A stretch of 39,184 bases of DNA from a virus: the UHGV virus genome UHGV-1367746, one strand, 5' to 3'. Shown here piece by piece: positions 2,708 through 39,184 of the stretch. Position 1 is the first letter of the stretch. Every line of letters starts with the position of its first letter. The notes under the pieces are model-generated. The model searched no databases, was not told the DNA's origin, and saw only the letters and a list, made by a program, of their open reading frames with translations. The translations under genes were made by a program, and so were the position numbers.

Positions 2708-3137
2708 AGAGTCCCTCCAGCATTAGGTCCCGGACAGAGATAGCCTCCTCTAAAGTAGGACGTGTTGTTCGCATATAGACATTCCCGCGTTTAACCTGAA
2801 TCCTATAACCATTCTGGTGACGGGTAACGCACTTCACTCCCGTCTTAGAGTCATAATGGCTACCCGTATTCCAAGTGTTCTCAGCGGCAGTAACGAGCCG
2901 TAAGTTACTTAAGGTATTATTGCTGGGGTTCCTGTCGATGTGATCTATTTGCATACCATGTGGTATAGGACCATTGGTTAGTTCCCATATCACGCGATGT
3001 GCCCGCTTACTGCCTAGACTTCGTGTCTGTACTATCCAATATCCCATCCGACTTAATGTCCCCACAGGCTTTCCAGTCCTAACGGAGACCAGACCGGATG
3101 GACTCGCCTGGTCCACTTTGTAGTAATCACTTAACAC
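2700..3137 (-). CDS. HNH homing endonuclease (free-standing)
   Basis: 145 aa; HNH motif region [41 protein letters not shown]; inserted between spanin and large terminase genes and overlapping both ends by a few nt. Confidence 0.85.
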
Positions 3138-10120: not shown

Positions 10121-12403
10121 TTACTCCTTACCGATTAGTACGTTTGCGATACCCTCCAGTGAGACGTCATTGTACATCCCACCGCGCTTCTCGATGTCGG
10201 CCTCTCGGTCAGCTCGACGTTTATCACCAGCAGCTTTAGTCCCGACGATACGCGCTCGCTTGTTAGCGTCACGTTCTGCCTGAGCGTATGCGGCATCCTG
10301 TGCCTTCTGCTGTTGTTCGCGGTAGAGTTTACCTACAAGTTCTTTATCGTAGCGAATACGAATAGTACCTGTAGCGTCTTGGAGGAAGATAGAGCCGTTC
10401 TGTTCAACAACGGACAACTGAGAGTTCACTACCCAAGGGTTGGCCTTAATGAGCTGCTTACGGGCGGTGTCGATAATGTCTCGACCTACCTGCCACGACT
10501 CAGGGTTATCCCCGACCATAAGCTGGTGCTTGGACACCATGCCGATGGACTTACCGTCAGAGCCTTCAGACTGGAACGTTACGGTATTTTCATTCAGCCA
10601 TCGTTGAGTCTGCTGAGTTGCAGCGTCAGCGTTACCTGTACGATAGTACCATGAGTCCCAGACCTTACGAGCACTTGAGTCCAGAGACGTAGGAAGACGC
10701 GAAAGGTCCTTATTCCGAGAGTCGTTCTTCAACTCCTGCCACGCCTTGTCTGACTCCATGCGCATCTCACGGCTTTGACTTGCAGCTTGCTTATCAGCTT
10801 CAATCATCGTCTGAGGGTCCAGACCCATCTTGTCCATCTGGTCGAACGTAGAGAACAACTGAGCTTGGTCAGGATACAGAGCAGCGAAACTTGAAGGGTC
10901 CTGAGTGTAGGCACGACGAAGAGACTCGAAGCGCTTCATCTTGTCTGGGTCGTACTGTCCACGGATGACCGCAGCTTGCCACTCACCAGCAGCGTCCTGA
11001 GTAAGCGTCTGGAAGGCATTACGGAACGGACCGTTGTTAGTGTCAGCTCTTAACAATGCCACCTTCTGAGCGTCCTTAGCAGCCTCAGGGATGTCCATCT
11101 GGTCAATCTGCTGTAGCTTGGCAGACGCATAGTTGTTCATGTCTGAACGCTTGAACTCTCCTGTAGCTTCAGAGACCGGAAGGTCCTCATAGTTGGTGGA
11201 CACGTTGTCCCCAGCCAGACGTCGCTGATAAACTTGGTCGATGACCAGTTGCTTGTTCTGGGTCTGGATTAACTTAGTGTTCTCCTTTGCCTGTTCAGCA
11301 GACTTACGCTTGACCGCTTCCAGTAAGCTGGCTTCGGCATTAATAAGCATCTGACGCTGAGGAGTGAGTTCTTCACCCGGCTGAAGCAGGTTGTTCTGCT
11401 CCTTGAGTTTCTGAATCTGGGCAAGACCAATGGTTGGGTCATCCTGAAGAATCGCAGACTGAACGCCTAACGCTAAGTCTTCCTGATACTTAGCCACCAG
11501 CTTGTACTCAGTTCCTTGTGCCTCAACAATAGCAGCGTTGAAGACATCAGGTCCTACAATCTCTTCGACTGTAGCGTCCACACCGTTAAGGGTTATTCGC
11601 TCGCCTCGTACTTGCTGTAGGAAGTTTGAGCCTCCTGACTTCTGGATTGCGTCACGGACCGTCTGGGTGATGACCTCTCGTGCTCTCTGGTCCGAAGGTA
11701 TAGCAGCAGTCGTCAGTCCATCCCGAAGGTAGGCCATGAAGGTCTTTCCAGACTCAGGCGAACGCATCAGGTCCCCATCGTTAAGGAACGAGTTCAACTC
11801 AATACGAGTGTTCAACATTGCTGTCTCTTCAGACTGCTTGCTGAAATACTTATTGAAGGACCCGTAGATAGCGATGTTTCGGTCCGTGATGTTATCGTTG
11901 AATCCACGCTGGAAGAACTCGTCGGTAGGGTTAATACCTGCCTCTTCAGCATAGGACTTAGCGGCATCCTGAAGTCGCTGGTGGCGATATTCTTCCATTT
12001 CCTGACGTGTGCGGAACTCACCGTTCTGAATCTTAACGTTAATCTCGTCGTCTACAGCAAAGGCAGCATTACGACCAGTCTTGACTCGAAGTGCTTCCAT
12101 AGCGTAAGGGTCATCCTGATACAGCAATGTGCCATTCTGGATAGCCTCACGTCTCTGCTGAGGTGTCAACTTACGGATAATCTCGTTAGACCGCTCGTCA
12201 GCTCTGGTCTTCTCATCGTCCTTGAACTGCTTGTACAATCCTGTCCCAGACTCAACGAAGTTAGTTAACGCACGAGCCAGACCGGAGTCACCAGTTGGAG
12301 CCTGAACGCTGGCTGCTTGATAGTTGACGGCGATAGTTTTACCCGGCGCTCTGCCACGACCCATAGTCCGATTAGCCAGAGCTGATTCAATATTACTAGC
12401 CAT
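10121..12403 (-). CDS. Internal virion protein C (gp15-like)
   Basis: 760 aa; similarity to T7 gp15 (ERSNEIIRKLTP.QRREA..NGTLLYQDDPYAMEALRVKTGRNAA, EEMEEYRH.RLQ); synteny. Confidence 0.85.
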   Translation of the reverse strand: MASNIESALANRTMGRGRAPGKTIAVNYQAASVQAPTGDSGLARALTNFVESGTGLYKQFKDDEKTRADERSNEIIRKLTPQQRREAIQNGTLLYQDDPYAMEALRVKTGRNAAFAVDDEINVKIQNGEFRTRQEMEEYRHQRLQDAAKSYAEEAGINPTDEFFQRGFNDNITDRNIAIYGSFNKYFSKQSEETAMLNTRIELNSFLNDGDLMRSPESGKTFMAYLRDGLTTAAIPSDQRAREVITQTVRDAIQKSGGSNFLQQVRGERITLNGVDATVEEIVGPDVFNAAIVEAQGTEYKLVAKYQEDLALGVQSAILQDDPTIGLAQIQKLKEQNNLLQPGEELTPQRQMLINAEASLLEAVKRKSAEQAKENTKLIQTQNKQLVIDQVYQRRLAGDNVSTNYEDLPVSEATGEFKRSDMNNYASAKLQQIDQMDIPEAAKDAQKVALLRADTNNGPFRNAFQTLTQDAAGEWQAAVIRGQYDPDKMKRFESLRRAYTQDPSSFAALYPDQAQLFSTFDQMDKMGLDPQTMIEADKQAASQSREMRMESDKAWQELKNDSRNKDLSRLPTSLDSSARKVWDSWYYRTGNADAATQQTQRWLNENTVTFQSEGSDGKSIGMVSKHQLMVGDNPESWQVGRDIIDTARKQLIKANPWVVNSQLSVVEQNGSIFLQDATGTIRIRYDKELVGKLYREQQQKAQDAAYAQAERDANKRARIVGTKAAGDKRRADREADIEKRGGMYNDVSLEGIANVLIGKE

Positions 12404-12414
12404 TAGTCCTCCTC

Positions 12415-13486: not shown

Positions 13487-13509
13487 AGTCCCTATAGTGA
13501 TAGTTAAGG
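13487..13509 (-). promoter_or_regulatory. Phage RNAP promoter (phi13-like), +1 at 13492
   Basis: Minus-strand CCTTAACTATCACTATAGGGACT; flanked by 12-bp inverted repeat aagggcctatag / ctataggccctt. Confidence 0.75.
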
Positions 13510-13533
13510 TAAATCTATAGGCCCTTCAATAAG

Positions 13534-15891
13534 TTAGACGGAACGAGCTTTCTTAGCGTATGACGCCTCCCAGCCACACCCAACGATTGACACTGGGGTA
13601 GGATAGTCGGACTCTAAGGTTAGACTCGTGGTTAATGCGTTACCATTCATAGCGAAGCGATACTGCCCGTCACCAATGTTTGTAGTCCCGATGGTTTGCT
13701 GACCAAGGGTGTACCCGTTGAAGGTATTCACGAACTCCCGCTCACCATTTCTGACAATGAGTCTCAGAGCGCCAGTGTCTTTGTAGTTGACCCAAGCCCG
13801 ACGAAGCTGTAGACGACCAGTGTCTTCCGACTGAGTGCCCCTATCATCTTCAATCTTAATCAGGAACCGTGAGAACTTGTAGGACATCAGATAGGGCCGT
13901 CCGATGAACACTGTGCGTCCTGACCAATCGCCGTTGAGGGTAACCACAGTAGAGATACTAGTCAAGTCCCCAAGGTCCACATAAGCACCCTGACTGTCAA
14001 TCAGATAGTACCGACCGGGAGACGGAGCGTTGCCACCATAAGCAGCACCAATGTCAACCGTAGTCTTATGTGTGTCAACGTTGTATGAGCCAATTGGTAT
14101 TACCATAGACACCTTGGAGTCAACGTGGAGTCTATACGGCTCTAATGGAAAGTCAGTTGCCTCCTTGATGAACTTAAGGTGCTCAAGGTCCACGCCGCCT
14201 TGGTGCTGACGAACAATGAACATGGTAGAGCCAATCGACGCAGACGCCAGAATCTTATCAGCTTTAGGGAACTCCCAGTGCGACCAAGAGGCTTGAAGCT
14301 GTATGCCGTCCTTAAACAAGAACTTGTAGAGGTAGATTCGGTTGTATGAACCTGTAGAGTTGACGCAGATGTAGTTCTCAGTCCCTGTTCCCTGAATGTC
14401 AAACACCCCGTTAGGGATATAGGACAGTACGTGACCAGTGGTATCATCGGCATCCTTCACGTCAGACACATCTGCTACAGCGAAGTATCGCTTAATGCTG
14501 GTGAATGACCCACGAGGTGCTGAGAAGAAGACTGAGCGTCCTACAGCGAACGGTCGGGCATTATCTCCTAAGGCAAACTCTGAGCCTACATCAAGCTGGA
14601 TAGACTTCGAGGTAAGGACCCCTGAGCTTGTCATCACGAACTGCACCTCATCTGACCAAAGTAGTAGCTGCTCGCTAAACGGAACGGCATACTTAAGGAT
14701 TGAGATTCTAGGGTGACTTACAGCTACGTCAATAGGATCATCATCACCTAATGTCGCCACACTCTTAGGGAAGAACGCAAAGTAGCTGGCTGAACGGCTC
14801 ATGATTACGTTCTCGCCTGACAAGAACCCCAGCCTATTCCTGTAGAAGAACACATCGTTAATTGTAGCATCCACGAAGCTAGGCATAGGGTTTGTGTCAT
14901 CATTACCAGCACCACGATTAGACCAGTCCAGAGTCTTGAACTCAAAGGAGCCATCAGGCTGTCTGACCAGAGCATGTGGCATTGTGGTGGCATCGAAACC
15001 AGTGACAACTCCCGGCTCCACTGTCTCCTTCCACGTCTTAGTGTTGGAGTCATACATCACGTAGTATTCATCGGCGCTACTGTTTGTCTCACCTTGAATC
15101 TTAATGATATACCCATTAGGAGCTGCAAGAGGTAGTTTAGAGATTGTCTGCACAGTGTCTAGGACTGGGCTTATTAGCTGGTTAGCGTAGCCATCCTCCG
15201 TCTCCACTGAGTTAATGTCAGTCCCTGAAGGAGCTGTGATTAGCAGGAATCCAGACCCAAGGTCGAACGTGAAGGTAGGGTAAGCAGCAACAAGAAGGTC
15301 TCTCAGAGCCGCACCGATAGCCTGAGCATCAACCTTAGGAGGGTCATTCTCGGCATCATTACCTGCTGGCAACTTATGCTCTACCTTAACGCCTCCATTT
15401 ATTCCTACCTTAAGGGTGCGACCATACTGTCCACCACGCAGGTTAATTAAAGCACGAGCTTTACGATTATAACCAGAGTGTGCCTTCTCGCTCCCACCTT
15501 TGACGACAACCTTACGGTTAACGACGAACGTATAGTCTGCCACGGTAACGACACGGATGTCATCTCGTGGGTTGGAGGACTTAACGTAATCTACCGCACC
15601 GGACACTGAGTATTGATTGCCACTCAAGTCAACTACCTGAATGTTGGACCCATTGAACACGATGTAATACTGCTCATGCTCGTCACGGTTAATCAGGTGG
15701 AACTTAGGGTTACTCCCAACGTCGATGTTAAGACGTCTCTTGAAGACTGTAGGTGGGCGCTTCTGGAGGCCATCACTCTCGGATGACCAGCAGTTAACCT
15801 GTGCCTCGCCTTGGTCTGAGAACCTCAGTATATCAGGCTGCTGGCTAATGCCACCTTTAAGGTTCTTGATTGATTGAGTAATTAGTGGCAT
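13534..15891 (-). CDS. Tail tubular protein B (gp12-like)
   Basis: 785 aa; strong similarity to T7 gp12 (SQSIKNLKGGISQQPDILR, GLQKRPP, HLINRDEHEQYY, RMVTVADYTF.VNR, LRRAWVNY, GCGWE). Confidence 0.95.
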   Translation of the reverse strand: MPLITQSIKNLKGGISQQPDILRFSDQGEAQVNCWSSESDGLQKRPPTVFKRRLNIDVGSNPKFHLINRDEHEQYYIVFNGSNIQVVDLSGNQYSVSGAVDYVKSSNPRDDIRVVTVADYTFVVNRKVVVKGGSEKAHSGYNRKARALINLRGGQYGRTLKVGINGGVKVEHKLPAGNDAENDPPKVDAQAIGAALRDLLVAAYPTFTFDLGSGFLLITAPSGTDINSVETEDGYANQLISPVLDTVQTISKLPLAAPNGYIIKIQGETNSSADEYYVMYDSNTKTWKETVEPGVVTGFDATTMPHALVRQPDGSFEFKTLDWSNRGAGNDDTNPMPSFVDATINDVFFYRNRLGFLSGENVIMSRSASYFAFFPKSVATLGDDDPIDVAVSHPRISILKYAVPFSEQLLLWSDEVQFVMTSSGVLTSKSIQLDVGSEFALGDNARPFAVGRSVFFSAPRGSFTSIKRYFAVADVSDVKDADDTTGHVLSYIPNGVFDIQGTGTENYICVNSTGSYNRIYLYKFLFKDGIQLQASWSHWEFPKADKILASASIGSTMFIVRQHQGGVDLEHLKFIKEATDFPLEPYRLHVDSKVSMVIPIGSYNVDTHKTTVDIGAAYGGNAPSPGRYYLIDSQGAYVDLGDLTSISTVVTLNGDWSGRTVFIGRPYLMSYKFSRFLIKIEDDRGTQSEDTGRLQLRRAWVNYKDTGALRLIVRNGEREFVNTFNGYTLGQQTIGTTNIGDGQYRFAMNGNALTTSLTLESDYPTPVSIVGCGWEASYAKKARSV

Positions 15892-15900
15892 AGGCCCTCC

Positions 15901-16128
15901 TTAAATCATACTCATTAGGACGTATCCTTCAGCGATGTCACCAACGTCAGCAATGTGGACAACCTTACGCGCTACCTGTTGTCCAGTATACCCGTTGTCC
16001 CATTCATTCAGGATAAGCCAATCGCCAACCTTAAAGTCCCGGTCGTTAAGTCTCAGCTCTGCTGTCTTTAGACCTAGCTGTACCGGACCAAAGTGCTGGC
16101 GGTGAATCTTCAGGTTGTGACTAGCCAT
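15901..16128 (-). CDS. DUF3850 / ASCH-like small protein (accessory gene between tail tubular A and B)
   Basis: 75 aa; pattern H.LKI....F..V..G.KT.E.R.NDRDF.VGD.L.L.E.D...YTG matches my recollection of DUF3850 proteins; no T7 counterpart at this locus. Confidence 0.6.
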   Translation of the reverse strand: MASHNLKIHRQHFGPVQLGLKTAELRLNDRDFKVGDWLILNEWDNGYTGQQVARKVVHIADVGDIAEGYVLMSMI

Positions 16129-16694
16129 TAGTCCCTCCCGATGTCTGACATCATGTTGTAGCGACCAGTGTCCATCTCGTACTCCATAACCTGCTGATAG
16201 AGTTCTGCTTCCTGCTCACGAAGGTATAGCTCTGACTCTGGGCTACCGAAGAACTTAGCGTTGAACTCACGGCTAGCTTTAGTGACGATGTAGTCCCTGA
16301 AGACCACAGGCATCTCGGAGAATGGCTTCATCTCCACAAGCTCTACCGTGATAGGGGCAGTGAAAGTGGTTGACTGAGTGGACAGGTCGTACAGGTATCC
16401 ACCCATGTTGCTGTAGTAGCTGGTGGCCCCAGCAGTCATTACACGAAGGTATGACGGAAGGAATCGAATCCTATTGTCTTGGACATCAGGTGTCAGGACA
16501 GCAGCTTCGTTGATGTTAAAGTTCCAGCCTTTAGCTTGGACCTGACGATTGACACGATGCAGTATACGTTGAGCGTTCGAGACATCAGCGTTCCCCTCGT
16601 CAAGCTGTAGGACTGCTGGTTCACCGATAGCAGCTAACATATCGTTGATGGCGTCTAAGTCATCGTTAGCATTCAGTGGAATGTATTGAGCCAT
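16128..16694 (-). CDS. Tail tubular protein A (gp11-like)
   Basis: 188 aa; similarity to T7 gp11 (IGEP, NA.RIL...NRQ.Q..GW.FN, EMP..FR.YIVTKASR.FN..FFG.PE, MEYEMD.G.YNM). Confidence 0.9.
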   Translation of the reverse strand: MAQYIPLNANDDLDAINDMLAAIGEPAVLQLDEGNADVSNAQRILHRVNRQVQAKGWNFNINEAAVLTPDVQDNRIRFLPSYLRVMTAGATSYYSNMGGYLYDLSTQSTTFTAPITVELVEMKPFSEMPVVFRDYIVTKASREFNAKFFGSPESELYLREQEAELYQQVMEYEMDTGRYNMMSDIGRD

Positions 16695-16696
16695 TA

Positions 16697-17128
16697 CTAA
16701 TCTCCTTTAAGGTAGCGTATAGCGTTTGCAATATGCTCTGGATTCTCACTTAGGAGTCCTATGGCACAGTTGCACCTCTGACAAAGCACGCCTCGTATTT
16801 CACCAGTGGAGTGACTGTGGTCTACAGCCAGTGTTCTACCAGATGTCTCTACTGTTCGCGAGCAAATCTCACAGGCCCAACCACGAGACTCCATAAGGGA
16901 GAACCACTCGTCATATGTCATACCGAACGAGCTTTTAAGTTGGTAGCCTTTAAGTCTTTCCGCTGAGTATCGTGATTTGTTGGGAGCTTCCTCTCGTATG
17001 GCAGCCTGCCTTGAGTTCTCGCACTCTCGGCATCTGCTTCTGTATTTCTGTGTGCCCTTACATGTCCTGCCATTTGGCGTGAAAGACCCCAAGTCCTTCT
17101 CCGTGTGGCATCCTATACATACCTTCAT
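16697..17128 (-). CDS. HNH homing endonuclease (free-standing), immediately downstream of Tphi-like terminator
   Basis: HNH motif DHSHSTGEIRGVLCQRCNCAIG plus N-terminal Cys cluster; start placed at ATG 17128 with GGAGG 4 nt upstream because the longer ORF (to 17182) would run through the terminator hairpin. Confidence 0.8.
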   Translation of the reverse strand: MKVCIGCHTEKDLGSFTPNGRTCKGTQKYRSRCRECENSRQAAIREEAPNKSRYSAERLKGYQLKSSFGMTYDEWFSLMESRGWACEICSRTVETSGRTLAVDHSHSTGEIRGVLCQRCNCAIGLLSENPEHIANAIRYLKGD

Positions 17129-17138
17129 TAATCCTCCG

Positions 17139-17176
17139 AAAAAAAACCCCTCAAGCACCCGAAGGCACCCAAGGGG
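17139..17176 (-). terminator. Tphi-like terminator for phage RNAP (also intrinsic-terminator-like)
   Basis: Minus RNA CCCCUUGGGUGCC-UUCG-GGUGCUUGAGGGG followed by U8; closely resembles T7 Tphi (AACCCCTTGGGGCCTCTAAACGGGTCTTGAGGGGTTTTTTG) and sits right after the 10B stop. Confidence 0.8.
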
Positions 17177-17182
17177 TTTCAA

Positions 17183-18357
17183 TTAGTTGTTGGACTCAGC
17201 CAGTTTAGCGGCCCTGTTCGCAGCACGAGTACGCGCAGCTTTCTGTTGAGGAGTTAGAGTCTCCTCTTCAGGTACAGCCGCTACAGTAGCGACGTTAGGT
17301 TGGCTAAAGGCGCTTACATCGCTGGGCTGAAAACCAGTGCGCCCGCCGCTTCAGGACGCAGACCACCGTGACCCATAGCGTACTTACCAACAATCAGGTC
17401 ACCCTGAGCATCGACATCACGGTCACGTTCCAGCGCCAAGTCACGCAGTTTCACAGTACCCACAGCAGAACGGTGAGAGAACAGGCCCACAACGTTGTCA
17501 ATAGCAACTTTAACGTCGCCAGCAGTAGTCGCTGGGAATGCGTGTTTCTGACCGGAAGCGATAGTGATACCATCGGCACCACGGGTCTCACCAGCACCAC
17601 CCTGTACCAGATGCGGAACTTCAACAACAACGAAGCCCATCACGTTACGGATGTTACCAGTCTCTGGGTCAATCAGCGCAGCATAGTTAGCAGCGTTAGG
17701 CATCAGAGCCGCGAGGATTGCAGAGTAGTTGTCCGGTGTGGTGTAGAAGTAACGGTCGCCAGCAGGAACGTAGTTGGAGGTCAGCTTCGCACGAGCAATG
17801 GTCAGTTGACCGATGATTGCTTCGCCCAGTTTAGCCGGGGTGTCGAGGTCAGCTTTCTTACCAACTTGCAGTACGGAAGCAGTTCCAAGACCAGCGATGT
17901 TCTCGTTGGATGCAGCTGGGAGGTTACACAGGGTAGCCATTTCAGCCAGAACCGCACCATCAGCAGCGATAGCCAAAGCTTCACCCAACTGGTTGGAATA
18001 CTCACCAGCCACGTCGTAGTGGTTCATCGCGTCTTCAATGTCGAAAATCATCACATCGGCAGTCAGCAGACCATCAATGGTAATCACCTTCTCAGTATGT
18101 TTGATACCTTTACGCTTATCGGACAGTCGCTCACCCGGAGCCAGATACACACCAGAGGTGCGACCCATGACCGGGAACTGAGCAGACTTACCGTTCTGAA
18201 TGGTACGGACAATATGCTTGTCAGCAGTTACAGAGCGGCGAGTGAATGCGGTCAGGACTTCACCAGCAAATACCTTCAGGAACAACGCCAGAGCGTCGGA
18301 ACTGGATTTGCCTTTACCTTGGTCTGTACCAATTTTCTGACCCGGAACGTTTGCCAT
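17183..18357 (-). CDS. Minor capsid protein 10B produced by -1 ribosomal frameshift near the 3' end of 10A (predicted)
   Basis: Slippery G GUU UUC at 17329-17335 as in T7 gene 10; the -1 frame stays open for 48 codons to TAA at 17183-17185 just before the terminator. Confidence 0.55.
17314..18357 (-). CDS. Major capsid protein 10A
   Basis: 347 aa; very high similarity to T7 gp10A (LALFLKVF.GEVLTAF, KSAQFPV.GRT, KHTEKVITIDGLLTADV, DIEDAMNHYDV, YSAILAALMPNAANYAALIDPE.G.IRNVMGF.VVEVPHL, HRSAVGTVKLRDLALER, KYAMGHGGLRPEAAGA). Confidence 0.95.
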   Translation of the reverse strand: MANVPGQKIGTDQGKGKSSSDALALFLKVFAGEVLTAFTRRSVTADKHIVRTIQNGKSAQFPVMGRTSGVYLAPGERLSDKRKGIKHTEKVITIDGLLTADVMIFDIEDAMNHYDVAGEYSNQLGEALAIAADGAVLAEMATLCNLPAASNENIAGLGTASVLQVGKKADLDTPAKLGEAIIGQLTIARAKLTSNYVPAGDRYFYTTPDNYSAILAALMPNAANYAALIDPETGNIRNVMGFVVVEVPHLVQGGAGETRGADGITIASGQKHAFPATTAGDVKVAIDNVVGLFSHRSAVGTVKLRDLALERDRDVDAQGDLIVGKYAMGHGGLRPEAAGALVFSPAM

Positions 18358-18459
18358 ATGATAATTCTCCTATTCAATTGAAAGATAAAGTTTATTACTT
18401 ACTGTATGCCCAATCCGTATGGACTGAAGTAATAGGGGAACCTTGAGTCTATCTCTTGG

Positions 18460-18482
18460 TCTCCCTATAGTGATAGTTTAGT
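18460..18482 (-). promoter_or_regulatory. Phage RNAP promoter (phi10-like, capsid gene), +1 at 18465
   Basis: Minus-strand ACTAAACTATCACTATAGGGAGACCA; -7 to +8 identical to T7 phi10 (CACTATAGGGAGACCA); 5' leader can form a stem. Confidence 0.85.
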
Positions 18483-18483
18483 C

Positions 18484-19368
18484 CTACAGGCTTGAGGCAG
18501 CTACCTTAGCGCGAACTTCCATCGTGTACTTAGCGTCACGCAGGTATCGCGGGTCACTCATAGCCTTAATCATGTCAGACTTGGAGCTGAATGCTTCGGT
18601 CTGAGGAGCCTTAGGTGCGACCACAGGTTTAGCCTGAGTGGTGATGGTACGCTGAGGTTTAACACCCACAGCTTTACCCAGAGTCTTGCAAGCCAGATTC
18701 AGCAGAGCCTTGGTAGTCGCAATGTCCTTACGAACGATAGCAGCTTCCAGTGCTTCACGAGTTGATGGGTCGTTGGACTCAAGGTGTGACAGGATGCGAT
18801 TAAACTGTTCAGCACCACCAGCGTAGCGAACCACACCAGCAGCATACTGTTCAGCCAGAGCTTCCTGACCACGGACAAACGAATCTACGAAACGCTTGGT
18901 GTAACCTGCTTCCTGCAACTTAGCGTAGGATGCATCAGACAGCTTACCGTCCTTGGCGTATTCAGCCTTGATAGCGGTAATTTCATCAGCAGTGACCTTG
19001 CCAGCTTCTACAGCAGAAGACACCATGTCGTCGAATGCAGCTTCGTTTTCATCCAGAGCGGTGACACTTTCGGTCAGCTCTTTTGGTGCATCACCCAGTT
19101 CGATGAACTCAGGCTGCTCACCATCGGTCTCAGACTCTTCGTCATCGGACTCGTGGTCTTCTTCACCTTCAGTCTCTTCGACGTTCTCGTCTTCTTCGGT
19201 CGCCTCTTCGTTTTCGGCTTCCAGTTGCTTGAAGGTAATAGCGTCGTCGCCATCACGAACAGCTACGTCCTGTTCAAGCATAGACTTCTGGTGTTCGTTC
19301 AGGTCCTCAACGGAACCAGTGATTGCATTAGAGCTAACGCCGAACTCGGCATAAACTGATTGAGACAT
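18484..19368 (-). CDS. Capsid assembly scaffolding protein (gp9-like)
   Basis: 294 aa, acidic; similarity to T7 gp9 (VYA.FGV.S, ARDGDDAI, EIGYTKAF.DS..RGQEAL.EQY, IKAMSDPRY); synteny. Confidence 0.9.
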   Translation of the reverse strand: MSQSVYAEFGVSSNAITGSVEDLNEHQKSMLEQDVAVRDGDDAITFKQLEAENEEATEEDENVEETEGEEDHESDDEESETDGEQPEFIELGDAPKELTESVTALDENEAAFDDMVSSAVEAGKVTADEITAIKAEYAKDGKLSDASYAKLQEAGYTKRFVDSFVRGQEALAEQYAAGVVRYAGGAEQFNRILSHLESNDPSTREALEAAIVRKDIATTKALLNLACKTLGKAVGVKPQRTITTQAKPVVAPKAPQTEAFSSKSDMIKAMSDPRYLRDAKYTMEVRAKVAASSL

Positions 19369-23508: not shown

Positions 23509-23789
23509 TGCTTGACCTCGAATCGCAGGTTGGACACACCGAACTGGCCCTCACCAAAGGAGTCTACCAGCTCTTCCTTGATGTTCTTCTTGGCGACAAT
23601 TTCAAGGGCAGACTCAGGGCCTGACTCGATTGCTGCTTTGACCAGAGCCAACTGAAGCCCATCCAACTTCTCACCATCAGCGTAGGCTTTAGTCATCTCA
23701 GCCAGTTGGCGACACACGGTCTCTTCTTCCTTTGAGTTAATAACCATCTTCAGGTCGAAACTTACACGAATACGTTTAGTAATAGCCAT
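23505..23789 (-). CDS. gp5.5-like protein (T7 gp5.5 binds host H-NS)
   Basis: 94 aa; N-terminus MAITKRIRVSFD resembles T7 gp5.5 MAMTKKFKVSFD; synteny. Confidence 0.7.
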   Translation of the reverse strand: MAITKRIRVSFDLKMVINSKEEETVCRQLAEMTKAYADGEKLDGLQLALVKAAIESGPESALEIVAKKNIKEELVDSFGEGQFGVSNLRFEVKQ

Positions 23790-23794
23790 TAGTG

Positions 23795-24193
23795 TTACTC
23801 CTGTTTAAATTGTCCGTACTTCTTGTCAGACGTTAAGTTTATACACATAGAGGTCTTGACTCTAACCTCTTCAGTGAACGGTATAAGCCAGAGGAAATCC
23901 TGATAAACAACCGCTAGTAGGTCGATGTCTCCAGGACTGTAAGTCGGCTTACCACATCCTCCCAGCCTTACCTGTATGCTATTACAGTTCTTCAGCTTCG
24001 TTCCGGTCTTGACCTGAACCCTCGTAAGGGTCCCGTCTATATCGACCACCAAGTCTGCCTTTGACTGCGTGAATGCTGGGAGGAACACTTGATGCCCATT
24101 GGCTGTCAGCCTAAAGCTTGCATATAGCTCACTAGCAGCACCAGTGAAGTGCTGGGACTTTCCGTCAATGGCATTCTTTCCACGTTGGTCCAA
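23795..24193 (-). CDS. Hypothetical protein, possible PD-(D/E)xK-type nuclease (gene 5.3 position); predicted TTG start
   Basis: ORF continues from DNAP 3' overlap; GGAGGG RBS 5 nt upstream of TTG at 24193; motif D-x-D...VQVK suggestive of a restriction-endonuclease-like fold (weak inference); ORF-track ATG start at 24307 would overlap DNAP by 143 nt. Confidence 0.45.
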   Translation of the reverse strand: MDQRGKNAIDGKSQHFTGAASELYASFRLTANGHQVFLPAFTQSKADLVVDIDGTLTRVQVKTGTKLKNCNSIQVRLGGCGKPTYSPGDIDLLAVVYQDFLWLIPFTEEVRVKTSMCINLTSDKKYGQFKQE

Positions 24194-38943: not shown

Positions 38944-39080
38944 AGGTAATTTGAAATAATATTGAGTAAGCTATCGTCGGCCCCATGGTGTAAGAGGATA
39001 TAGTCTTTGACTAACATGTCTTTGACCTTAAGTCTATAGCTGTGTGTCGATTAACTGTAGGCCTTTGACTGTAGGCGTTG

Positions 39081-39184
39081 GTGTCTTATGGTTGTGACTT
39101 ATGGTTGTGACTTATGGTTGTGACTTATGGTTGTGACTTATGGTTGTGACTTATGGTTGTGACTTATGGTTGTGACTTATGGTT
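39081..39184. repeat. Tandem array of 13-mer gtgacttatggtt (7 perfect copies plus 1 variant gtgtcttatggtt) at window end (terminal repeat region)
   Basis: Direct reading 39081-39184; same unit as positions 1-52, so both genome ends carry the array. Confidence 0.9.

Follow-up and report, generated by a model that had tools for sequence, protein, structure and literature searches.

A DUF3850 gene with a minimal ASCH fold lies between the tail tubular protein genes of a T7-like phage

The DNA considered here is the virus genome UHGV-1367746, a stretch of 39,184 nucleotides (nt) that is referred to, at its full length, as the window. It is a complete T7-like genome in reverse orientation, with every gene on the minus strand, and shares ~95% identity with Escherichia phage TM1 and other Kayfunavirus isolates. 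At 15901..16128(-), the window carries a gene for a 75-residue protein of the DUF3850 family with a minimal ASCH fold (hereafter the window protein). Its TAA stop codon occupies 15901-15903, and the corresponding gene of Citrobacter phage CR44b is named gene 11.05. Upstream lies gene 11, which encodes tail tubular protein A (16128..16694(-), 188 aa; PF17212 Tube, E 3e-46; PHROG 446 tail protein). Downstream lies gene 12 for tail tubular protein B, or nozzle (13534..15891(-), 785 aa; PF25675 Phage_nozzle, 1089 bits). An original prediction, made from the sequence alone, had placed a 75-residue open reading frame (ORF) between these two genes, and the ORF is present at exactly 15901..16128(-), stop codon included.

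The assignment of the product (MASHNLKIHRQHFGPVQLGLKTAELRLNDRDFKVGDWLILNEWDNGYTGQQVARKVVHIADVGDIAEGYVLMSMI) to DUF3850 and ASCH, also part of that prediction, was borne out by the Pfam search that had been proposed as its check. DUF3850 (PF12961) was matched at 70.1 bits (gathering cut-off 22.9; E 1.9e-19), with residues 4-73 aligned to profile positions 2-76 of 77, which is near full length. ASCH (PF04266), of the PUA-like clan, was matched at 26.2 bits (cut-off 21.2; E 1.4e-5). The protein also matches PHROG 986, labeled 'RNA-binding protein' (E 2.8e-35), and it has no match among NCBIfam profiles. A family hidden Markov model (HMM) run against the six-frame translation gave this site as the sole match in the window (E 1.2e-37). 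A search of the entire window with Rfam found nothing.

The ORF is a genuine gene, and a chance ORF is excluded. Stop codons crowd both remaining coding-strand frames, no interruption of the reading frame is seen in any of the 14 copies inspected (the window and 13 other loci), and the full 75 residues were covered by tblastn in 17 of 17 Kayfunavirus-type records among the matches listed. GC content and codon adaptation are in line with the rest of the phage. The ratio of nonsynonymous to synonymous polymorphism (pN/pS) is 0.17 over 13 distinct alleles, compared with 0.035 for gene 11. The DUF3850 gene is thus under purifying selection. The identity and anatomy of the gene can be regarded as practically certain. 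An antisense ORF of 56 aa at 15935..16105(+) was considered and rejected as a shadow of the DUF3850 coding frame.

The gene is tightly packed between its neighbors, with 0 nt to gene 11 and 9 nt (GGAGGGCCT) to the gene 12 ATG. The last A of the gene 11 TAA is the A of the DUF3850 ATG, so the overlap is a single base within TAATG, not the ATGA that had first been described. The translation-initiation region of the DUF3850 gene lies within the end of gene 11 (16126..16139(-); GGG AGG GAC TAATG), where a Shine-Dalgarno sequence, GGGAGGG, is embedded in Gly-Arg codons. At the 3' junction (15889..15903(-); TAA GGAGGGCCT ATG), the DUF3850 stop, the gene 12 Shine-Dalgarno sequence, and the gene 12 start follow one another. 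Because the start overlaps the gene 11 stop and the Shine-Dalgarno sequence sits in the last gene 11 codons, the DUF3850 gene appears to be positioned for translational coupling to gene 11. Production in step with gp11 and gp12 could also suit a tail-assembly or virion-associated accessory protein that acts on these two partners, but this role is considered very improbable.

This arrangement was compared across the window and 26 complete gene 11/gene 12 junctions in the fetched loci. DUF3850 is present at 13 of the 26 (12 of the 23 from IMG/VR), and the window supplies the 14th copy. At all 14 DUF3850-type junctions, gene 11 ends in GGG AG(G/A) GAC TAATG, with the Shine-Dalgarno sequence five bases ahead of the overlapping ATG. 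In the 11 spacer-type loci, which lack DUF3850, gene 11 ends in GGT CGA GAC TAA in ten and in AGC CGA GAG TAA in the remaining one (L025). The Gly/Ser-Arg residues at the matching position thus use non-Shine-Dalgarno codons in 11 of 11, and a spacer with a GGAG-containing ribosome-binding site (e.g., TAGGAGGTGAT) precedes the gene 12 ATG. The divergent copies in the IMG/VR locus L010 and in CR44b retain the spacer-type ribosome-binding site (GGAGGTGAT or GGAGGTGCT) before gene 12; the insertion point was therefore after the gene 11 stop but ahead of the ribosome-binding site of gene 12. The third type, found in phage K1F and its IMG/VR relative L003, has no DUF3850 gene. Here, GGGAG(G/A)GAC TAATG is joined directly to gene 12, such that the gene 11 stop of K1F overlaps the gene 12 start. 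The gene 12 alleles of this type group with those of DUF3850-bearing phages (98% identity). The simplest reading is that the K1F-type junction would have arisen secondarily by a precise deletion of 237 nt.

Two repeats touch the junctions of the gene. The 15-mer TAAGGAGGGCCTATG (15889-15903(-)), found once in the window, recurs unchanged in sibling phages (L010-L012 and L015-L017, ~2986-3003) as the translation-initiation region of gene 11. In phages such as L011 and L016, it forms a direct repeat that flanks gene 11 and DUF3850 together. This repeat could be either a recombination footprint or a case of convergence on a strong ribosome-binding site. Separately, repeat family D9 (12391-12414, 16116-16139, and 23777-23800) comprises a near-identical start context (...CTAATGGCTA...) that belongs to gene 15, the DUF3850 gene, and a 94-aa gene. 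D9 probably represents a favored start context rather than common ancestry.

The DUF3850 gene shares the transcription unit of the tail genes. The consensus of the phage RNA polymerase promoter (reverse complement of CCTATAGTGATAGTTTAGTCCT) is present in 11 copies in the window, which make up repeat family D2. These 22-mers (reverse complement of CCTATAGTGATAGTTTAG) start at 828, 6214, 13491, 18464, 19470, 22291, 28373, 30724, 31700, 33456, and 36776 in plus-strand coordinates. The nearest D2 copy upstream of the DUF3850 gene, at 18464..18485(-), precedes gene 10. Another at 13491..13512(-), just 3' of gene 12 and equivalent to phi13, bounds the unit. No copy lies between 18464 and 13512. Whereas T3-type phages possess phi11, the window phage has no promoter copy directly upstream of gene 11. 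A terminator scan located a T-phi-like intrinsic terminator 3' of the capsid gene (17148..17165(-)); sibling phages have this hairpin ahead of gene 11, and T-phi is annotated at the matching position in phage T7M. This hairpin excepted, sigma-70 and terminator scans around the DUF3850 gene performed no better than on shuffled sequence. In T7, genes 11 and 12 are transcribed by terminator read-through. Since the DUF3850 gene has no promoter or terminator signals, it is probably transcribed only late, on tail-gene transcripts that read through the T-phi-like terminator. With no promoter or terminator flanking it, the gene is not a classical moron. Its presence is polymorphic among collinear relatives, and it behaves as an accessory cassette.

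The feature as such is known, since many public Kayfunavirus records already include the identical protein, with annotation, in this slot. The 75-aa 'unknown product' of EcoDS1, gene 11.05 of CR44b, and copies in other Kayfunavirus occupy this position with the same TAATG coupling as in the window. Public annotations vary and include hypothetical protein, 'RNA-binding protein', 'DUF3850 domain-containing protein', and 'activating signal cointegrator'. In a megablast search of the public phage collection, 184 records covered at least 80% of a gene 11-DUF3850-gene 12 query, a coverage that alone does not prove the presence of the 228-nt gene. By tblastn, 181 phage records contain a copy at least 60% identical, several of them encoding a 100% identical protein, and gene 11 is found at the same threshold in 223. 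Roughly four fifths of the clade therefore carry the gene, whereas no copy was seen in the remaining T7-like records (about 900). GenBank record MT350292.1, 'Enterococcus phage EFA-1', is a Kayfunavirus ~95% identical to the window. Its Enterococcus host label looks doubtful because its relatives all infect Enterobacteriaceae.

Phages that lack the gene show that it is a dispensable accessory gene. A six-frame HMM search detected no copy at any position in the genomes of K1F, the type species, and SH3, which rules out relocation of the gene within either of them. In T7M, a T3-type outgroup, genes 11 and 12 are separated by a 15-nt spacer with no gene between them, in agreement with the original description of T7-type genes 11 and 12 as adjacent. 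Divergent copies occupy the same slot in CR44b (45% identical) and Pectobacterium phage LET1 (61% identical). In a neighbor-joining tree without bootstrap support, the T7-like copies make up a single clade surrounded by copies from temperate phages of enterobacteria. The closest relatives outside this clade are found in lambdoid nin/replication regions, e.g., in Erwinia phage Midgardsormr38 (65% identity). These patterns suggest that the gene was captured once and then lost in some lineages, such as K1F, where 237 nt would have been deleted.

A position inside the structural module had been called unusual for a putative RNA-binding protein, and the other copies inspected confirm that the location is unusual, being located among early, replication, recombination, or nin-type accessory genes. 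The lambdoid Erwinia phage and a lambdoid metagenomic contig carry the gene among nin/replication accessory genes. In a P2-like phage it lies directly 3' of the replication gene, and in a T1-like phage and an Enterococcus myovirus it sits among early, replication, recombination, or nin-type accessory genes. It adjoins SSB in a Listeria siphovirus and lies between RecET and a DNA methyltransferase in a Gordonia phage. In a Kagunavirus, the gene belongs to a group of small hypothetical genes between the lysis and terminase genes.

Such accessory hot spots (the nin region, the site after P2 gene A, and early small-gene clusters), together with patchy presence among near-identical phages, would suit a counter-defence factor. 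Such a factor would bind or destroy a nucleotide-derived signal, or would reverse a host immune base modification or the product of a toxin. This role would explain both a benefit confined to some hosts and frequent loss. In bacteria, an association of ASCH genes with restriction-modification, GNAT-EVE, and tRNA-cleaving operons has been described, and fusions of ParB to DUF3850 are enriched in prophages and have been suggested by their authors to have anti-defence roles (PMC12704722). However, late expression coupled to the tail genes is ill-timed against immunity that acts early. PADLOC returned only a partial match of 14 bits (E 0.0073), which was treated as noise, and a BFVD fold search revealed no resemblance to known anti-defence families. 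Counter-defence is therefore viewed as an unlikely role for the gene.

The window protein belongs to DUF3850 and to the ASCH superfamily, and it displays every defining feature of them that could be tested. AlphaFold2, supplied with a 63-sequence alignment, predicts a strand-helix-strand-strand-strand-strand barrel with a predicted local distance difference test score (pLDDT) of 96.9. The predicted helix spans residues 10-17, strand 2 spans 23-27, and a short loop spans 62-68. The beta-barrel core resembles that of solved ASCH proteins, and the fold is that of PDB entry 3IUW. The BFVD search matched only uncharacterized DUF3850/ASCH phage proteins. The ASCH octapeptide reads G19-L-K21-T-A-E24-L-R26 and is of the G-x-K-x-x-E-x-R type. 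Nine polar residues are invariant across 74 multidomain relatives (H4, K21, E24, R26, N28, D29, R30, D36, and E42), and the window protein carries all of them. Position 7 is a near-invariant Lys in DUF3850. The protein is a single domain with an isoelectric point (pI) of 6.4 and a net charge of -1. Matches at E ≤0.001 comprise 5,324 clusters at 50% identity, which makes this a large family. Its members occur fused to a CTP-binding ParB-CTPase fold, a dATP/dGTP pyrophosphohydrolase, DUF551, or a LexA DNA-binding domain.

Retention of the nine residues bears on whether the gene is a passenger. All nine are kept by 32 of 36 representatives of the T7-like clade, at divergence down to ~60% identity. 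Family-invariant residues are lost in gene 11.05 of CR44b (L024, 3567-3791), with E24D and N-D-R changed to S-I-P; the LET1 copy (L032, 4001-4219), with N28Y and R30E; one IMG/VR allele with R30L (L008); and one cluster with K21Q (P0009). These losses could reflect relaxed selection or altered function. A hitch-hiking gene would confer no current benefit, would be kept as the carrier of translational coupling between genes 11 and 12, and would be slowly decaying. Its dispensability, a pN/pS value five times that of gene 11, the loss of family-invariant residues in these alleles, and the gathering of homing-endonuclease genes in the slots around gene 11 are compatible with this fate. Nevertheless, its pN/pS denotes clear purifying selection on the protein, most representatives retain every invariant residue, and no inspected copy is disrupted. 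Moreover, the clean deletion in K1F is viable, so a useless gene should disappear faster. Passenger status is accordingly quite unlikely.

The only solved DUF3850 (PF12961) member is 3IUW, a structural-genomics structure of the 'activating signal cointegrator' of Enterococcus faecalis V583 (NP_814290.1). That gene is chromosomal or prophage-borne in a Firmicute, whereas the window protein is encoded in a T7-like tail module. The ParB-CTPase-DUF3850 fusions of prophages share this DUF3850 domain and its invariant residues; unlike the stand-alone protein of this lytic phage, they are multidomain, bind CTP, and are encoded beside parA (PMC12704722).

Escherichia coli YqfB (PDB 1TE7, 9KYF) is an ASCH-domain N4-acetylcytidine (ac4C) amidohydrolase of 103 residues, compared with 75 in the window protein. 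The similarity between the two is marginal (E 0.33-0.44), with K21/E24/R26 in register with K21/T24/R26 of YqfB. The C-terminal helical segment of YqfB that bears the general acid Glu74 has no counterpart in the window protein, which ends at residue 75. The placement of Glu74 is consistent with the aligned part of YqfB. YqfB has Thr24 where the window protein has Glu24, and Thr or Ser at this sixth octapeptide position is absolutely conserved in the YqfB clade (10.64898/2026.08.01.741249). Because it has neither Thr24 nor Glu74, the window protein, judged from its residues, is not a YqfB-type enzyme.

Thermus TthASCH (2DP9) and human EOLA1 (5Y7D) share the G-x-K-x-x-E-x-R octapeptide type. The Lys and Glu (plus Arg) characteristic of this GKER type are represented by K21, E24, and R26, and are needed in TthASCH, EOLA1, and TRIP4 (10.64898/2026.02.27.708502; 10.64898/2026.08.01.741249). 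At about 120-160 residues, TthASCH and EOLA1 exceed the window protein in size, and they also possess additional helices and an electropositive surface. The TRIP4/EOLA1 clade has a pocket-facing Ser/Thr at position 7 where DUF3850 has Lys. The window protein resembles the EOLA1/TthASCH group only partly.

Given these features, the window protein may bind a modified nucleobase in a K21-E24-R26 pocket, and most likely would hydrolyze an N-acyl group there as an N-acyl-cytosine deacylase. We assign this reading a probability of roughly 40%. It draws on the conserved triad, the DUF3850-specific polar residues that are also kept (H4, N28, D29, R30, D36, and E42), the YqfB and EOLA1 precedents, the acidic pI, and the nucleotide- and DNA-linked fusions. 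In YqfB and EOLA1, the residues at the triad positions border a narrow pocket that accepts N4-acetylated cytosine, whether free or flipped out, and they are needed for deacetylation. ASCH proteins of both the Thr and Glu types are reported in a preprint to remove ac4C from tRNA, with Lys and Glu being essential (10.64898/2026.02.27.708502). In EOLA1, according to a second preprint, the acetylated base is taken up by a narrow pocket bordered by K21, E24, and R26, and an R26A mutant is inactive (10.64898/2026.08.01.741249). YqfB-type enzymes are acidic and showed no binding of RNA (PMC9599836), which the pI of the window protein matches. The substrate would be of the ac4C type, either a free nucleoside or nucleotide or an exposed base of a host tRNA. 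The phage might gain by remodeling host tRNA or the nucleotide pool, or by reversing a base modification imposed by the host. Any benefit would be conditional, as close relatives thrive without the gene.

Several observations weigh against this reading. The window domain is a stripped-down ASCH domain that lacks the Glu74-bearing helical segment of YqfB, and it has Lys at position 7 in place of the Ser/Thr of the TRIP4/EOLA1 clade. The study of ASCH erasers kept only models aligning at least 80 residues to YqfB, and none of the 19 proteins it assayed was viral or belonged to DUF3850 (10.64898/2026.02.27.708502). In the same work, ZmASCH and the ASCH domain of TRIP4, which are of the GKER type, were inactive on the free ac4C nucleoside (10.64898/2026.02.27.708502). 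The NDR motif is lost in CR44b, in LET1, and in the R30L allele of the T7-like clade, and may therefore be non-essential in the T7-like context. What the phage would gain is not evident from late expression, which is an odd timing for host takeover, or from the frequent loss of the gene. Papers that mention DUF3850 contain no functional data on the family. Literature searches on Kayfunavirus 'RNA-binding protein', on 'activating signal cointegrator' with 'tail tubular', and on ORFs between K1F genes 11 and 12 found nothing relevant.

Some ASCH proteins are, in addition, predicted to be non-catalytic readers of modified DNA. As a reader, the barrel of the window protein would bind a modified base or an RNA or DNA structure and act by occupancy, shielding or marking nucleic acid or altering how late transcripts are translated or how stable they are. 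Most of the PUA-like superfamily (SRA, EVE, YTH, and PUA) is made up of readers, and binding of modified DNA or RNA has been predicted for ASCH domains. The fusions of the family to DNA-binding modules (ParB and the LexA winged helix) and the PHROG 986 label point the same way. In contrast, the window protein offers only 75 residues with a slight negative charge and an acidic pI, and it has no accessory nucleic-acid-binding module. Stand-alone ASCH catalytic domains gave no tRNA gel shift (PMC9599836; 10.64898/2026.02.27.708502). Furthermore, nine invariant charged or polar residues in a protein this small suggest chemistry or a very specific small ligand over surface binding. A reader role is thus possible but doubtful, and a general RNA-binding protein is not thought likely.

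The deacylase reading has a bolder form, to which we give little credence. No working ASCH enzyme would then be smaller than the window protein, which would also be the first eraser of nucleobase acylation encoded by a virus, made late as a conditional counter-measure. Its targets for removal of N4-acetyl or related acyl groups would be ac4C34 of host tRNA-Met, free ac4C nucleotides, or a base modification introduced by host defence. If true, the conditional role would explain why the gene is repeatedly kept or lost among near-identical phages.

The DUF3850 gene is not the only insertion near gene 11. A gene for an endonuclease VII/His-Me finger protein (16697..17128(-), with the mechanical ORF extending to 17182; PF02945, E 2.1e-19) is situated between gene 11 and the T-phi-like terminator; the gene 11 ribosome-binding site is supplied by the 3' end of this endonuclease gene. 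This gene was not found in K1F, in phiHAO1-1, or in any of 25 IMG/VR relatives, and only one phage record contains a copy at least 90% identical. Its codon adaptation (0.56) is the lowest among the genes tested, and it looks like a recent homing-endonuclease insertion. It is located on the opposite side of gene 11 and was not found at any other inspected DUF3850-bearing locus, which indicates that the two genes are independent insertions. The possibility that the DUF3850 gene is homing-endonuclease cargo was rejected on account of both this position and this absence. In Hafnia phage Ca, a 146-aa endonuclease gene lies between an identical 75-aa DUF3850 gene and gene 12 (PMC8861465). Together with the window, this phage suggests that the short slots on both sides of gene 11 are insertion hot spots in the genus.

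Two further observations concern the window at large. Tandem 13-nt repeats (GTGACTTATGGTT) at 1-65 and 39068-39184, at both ends, are consistent with a whole genome with direct terminal repeats. A strikingly long ORF of 337 aa at 17368..18381(+) runs antisense over almost the whole major capsid gene and is most likely a by-product of codon bias.

As a genome feature, the DUF3850 gene is of small importance, since the protein, the slot, the family, and the fold are already catalogued. The original prediction had called for a check of presence and absence in related genomes, and the resulting census, with carriage by most of the clade and absence from K1F, SH3, and T7M, is one of the additions made here. 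The others are the Shine-Dalgarno sequence in the last gene 11 codons, the secondary loss proposed for K1F, and a testable enzymatic hypothesis. The locus constitutes a natural experiment in which near-identical phages differ by exactly one 237-nt cassette. The domain it encodes, at 75 residues, is a minimal form of a fold whose link to ac4C deacetylation dates only from 2026. DUF3850 itself comprises more than 5,000 clusters at 50% identity, mostly from phages and prophages, and has no assigned function. A single enzyme assay, together with a pair of isogenic phages, could be enough to give the family as a whole a function. Such work could also show whether phages edit the modifications of host RNA or nucleotides.
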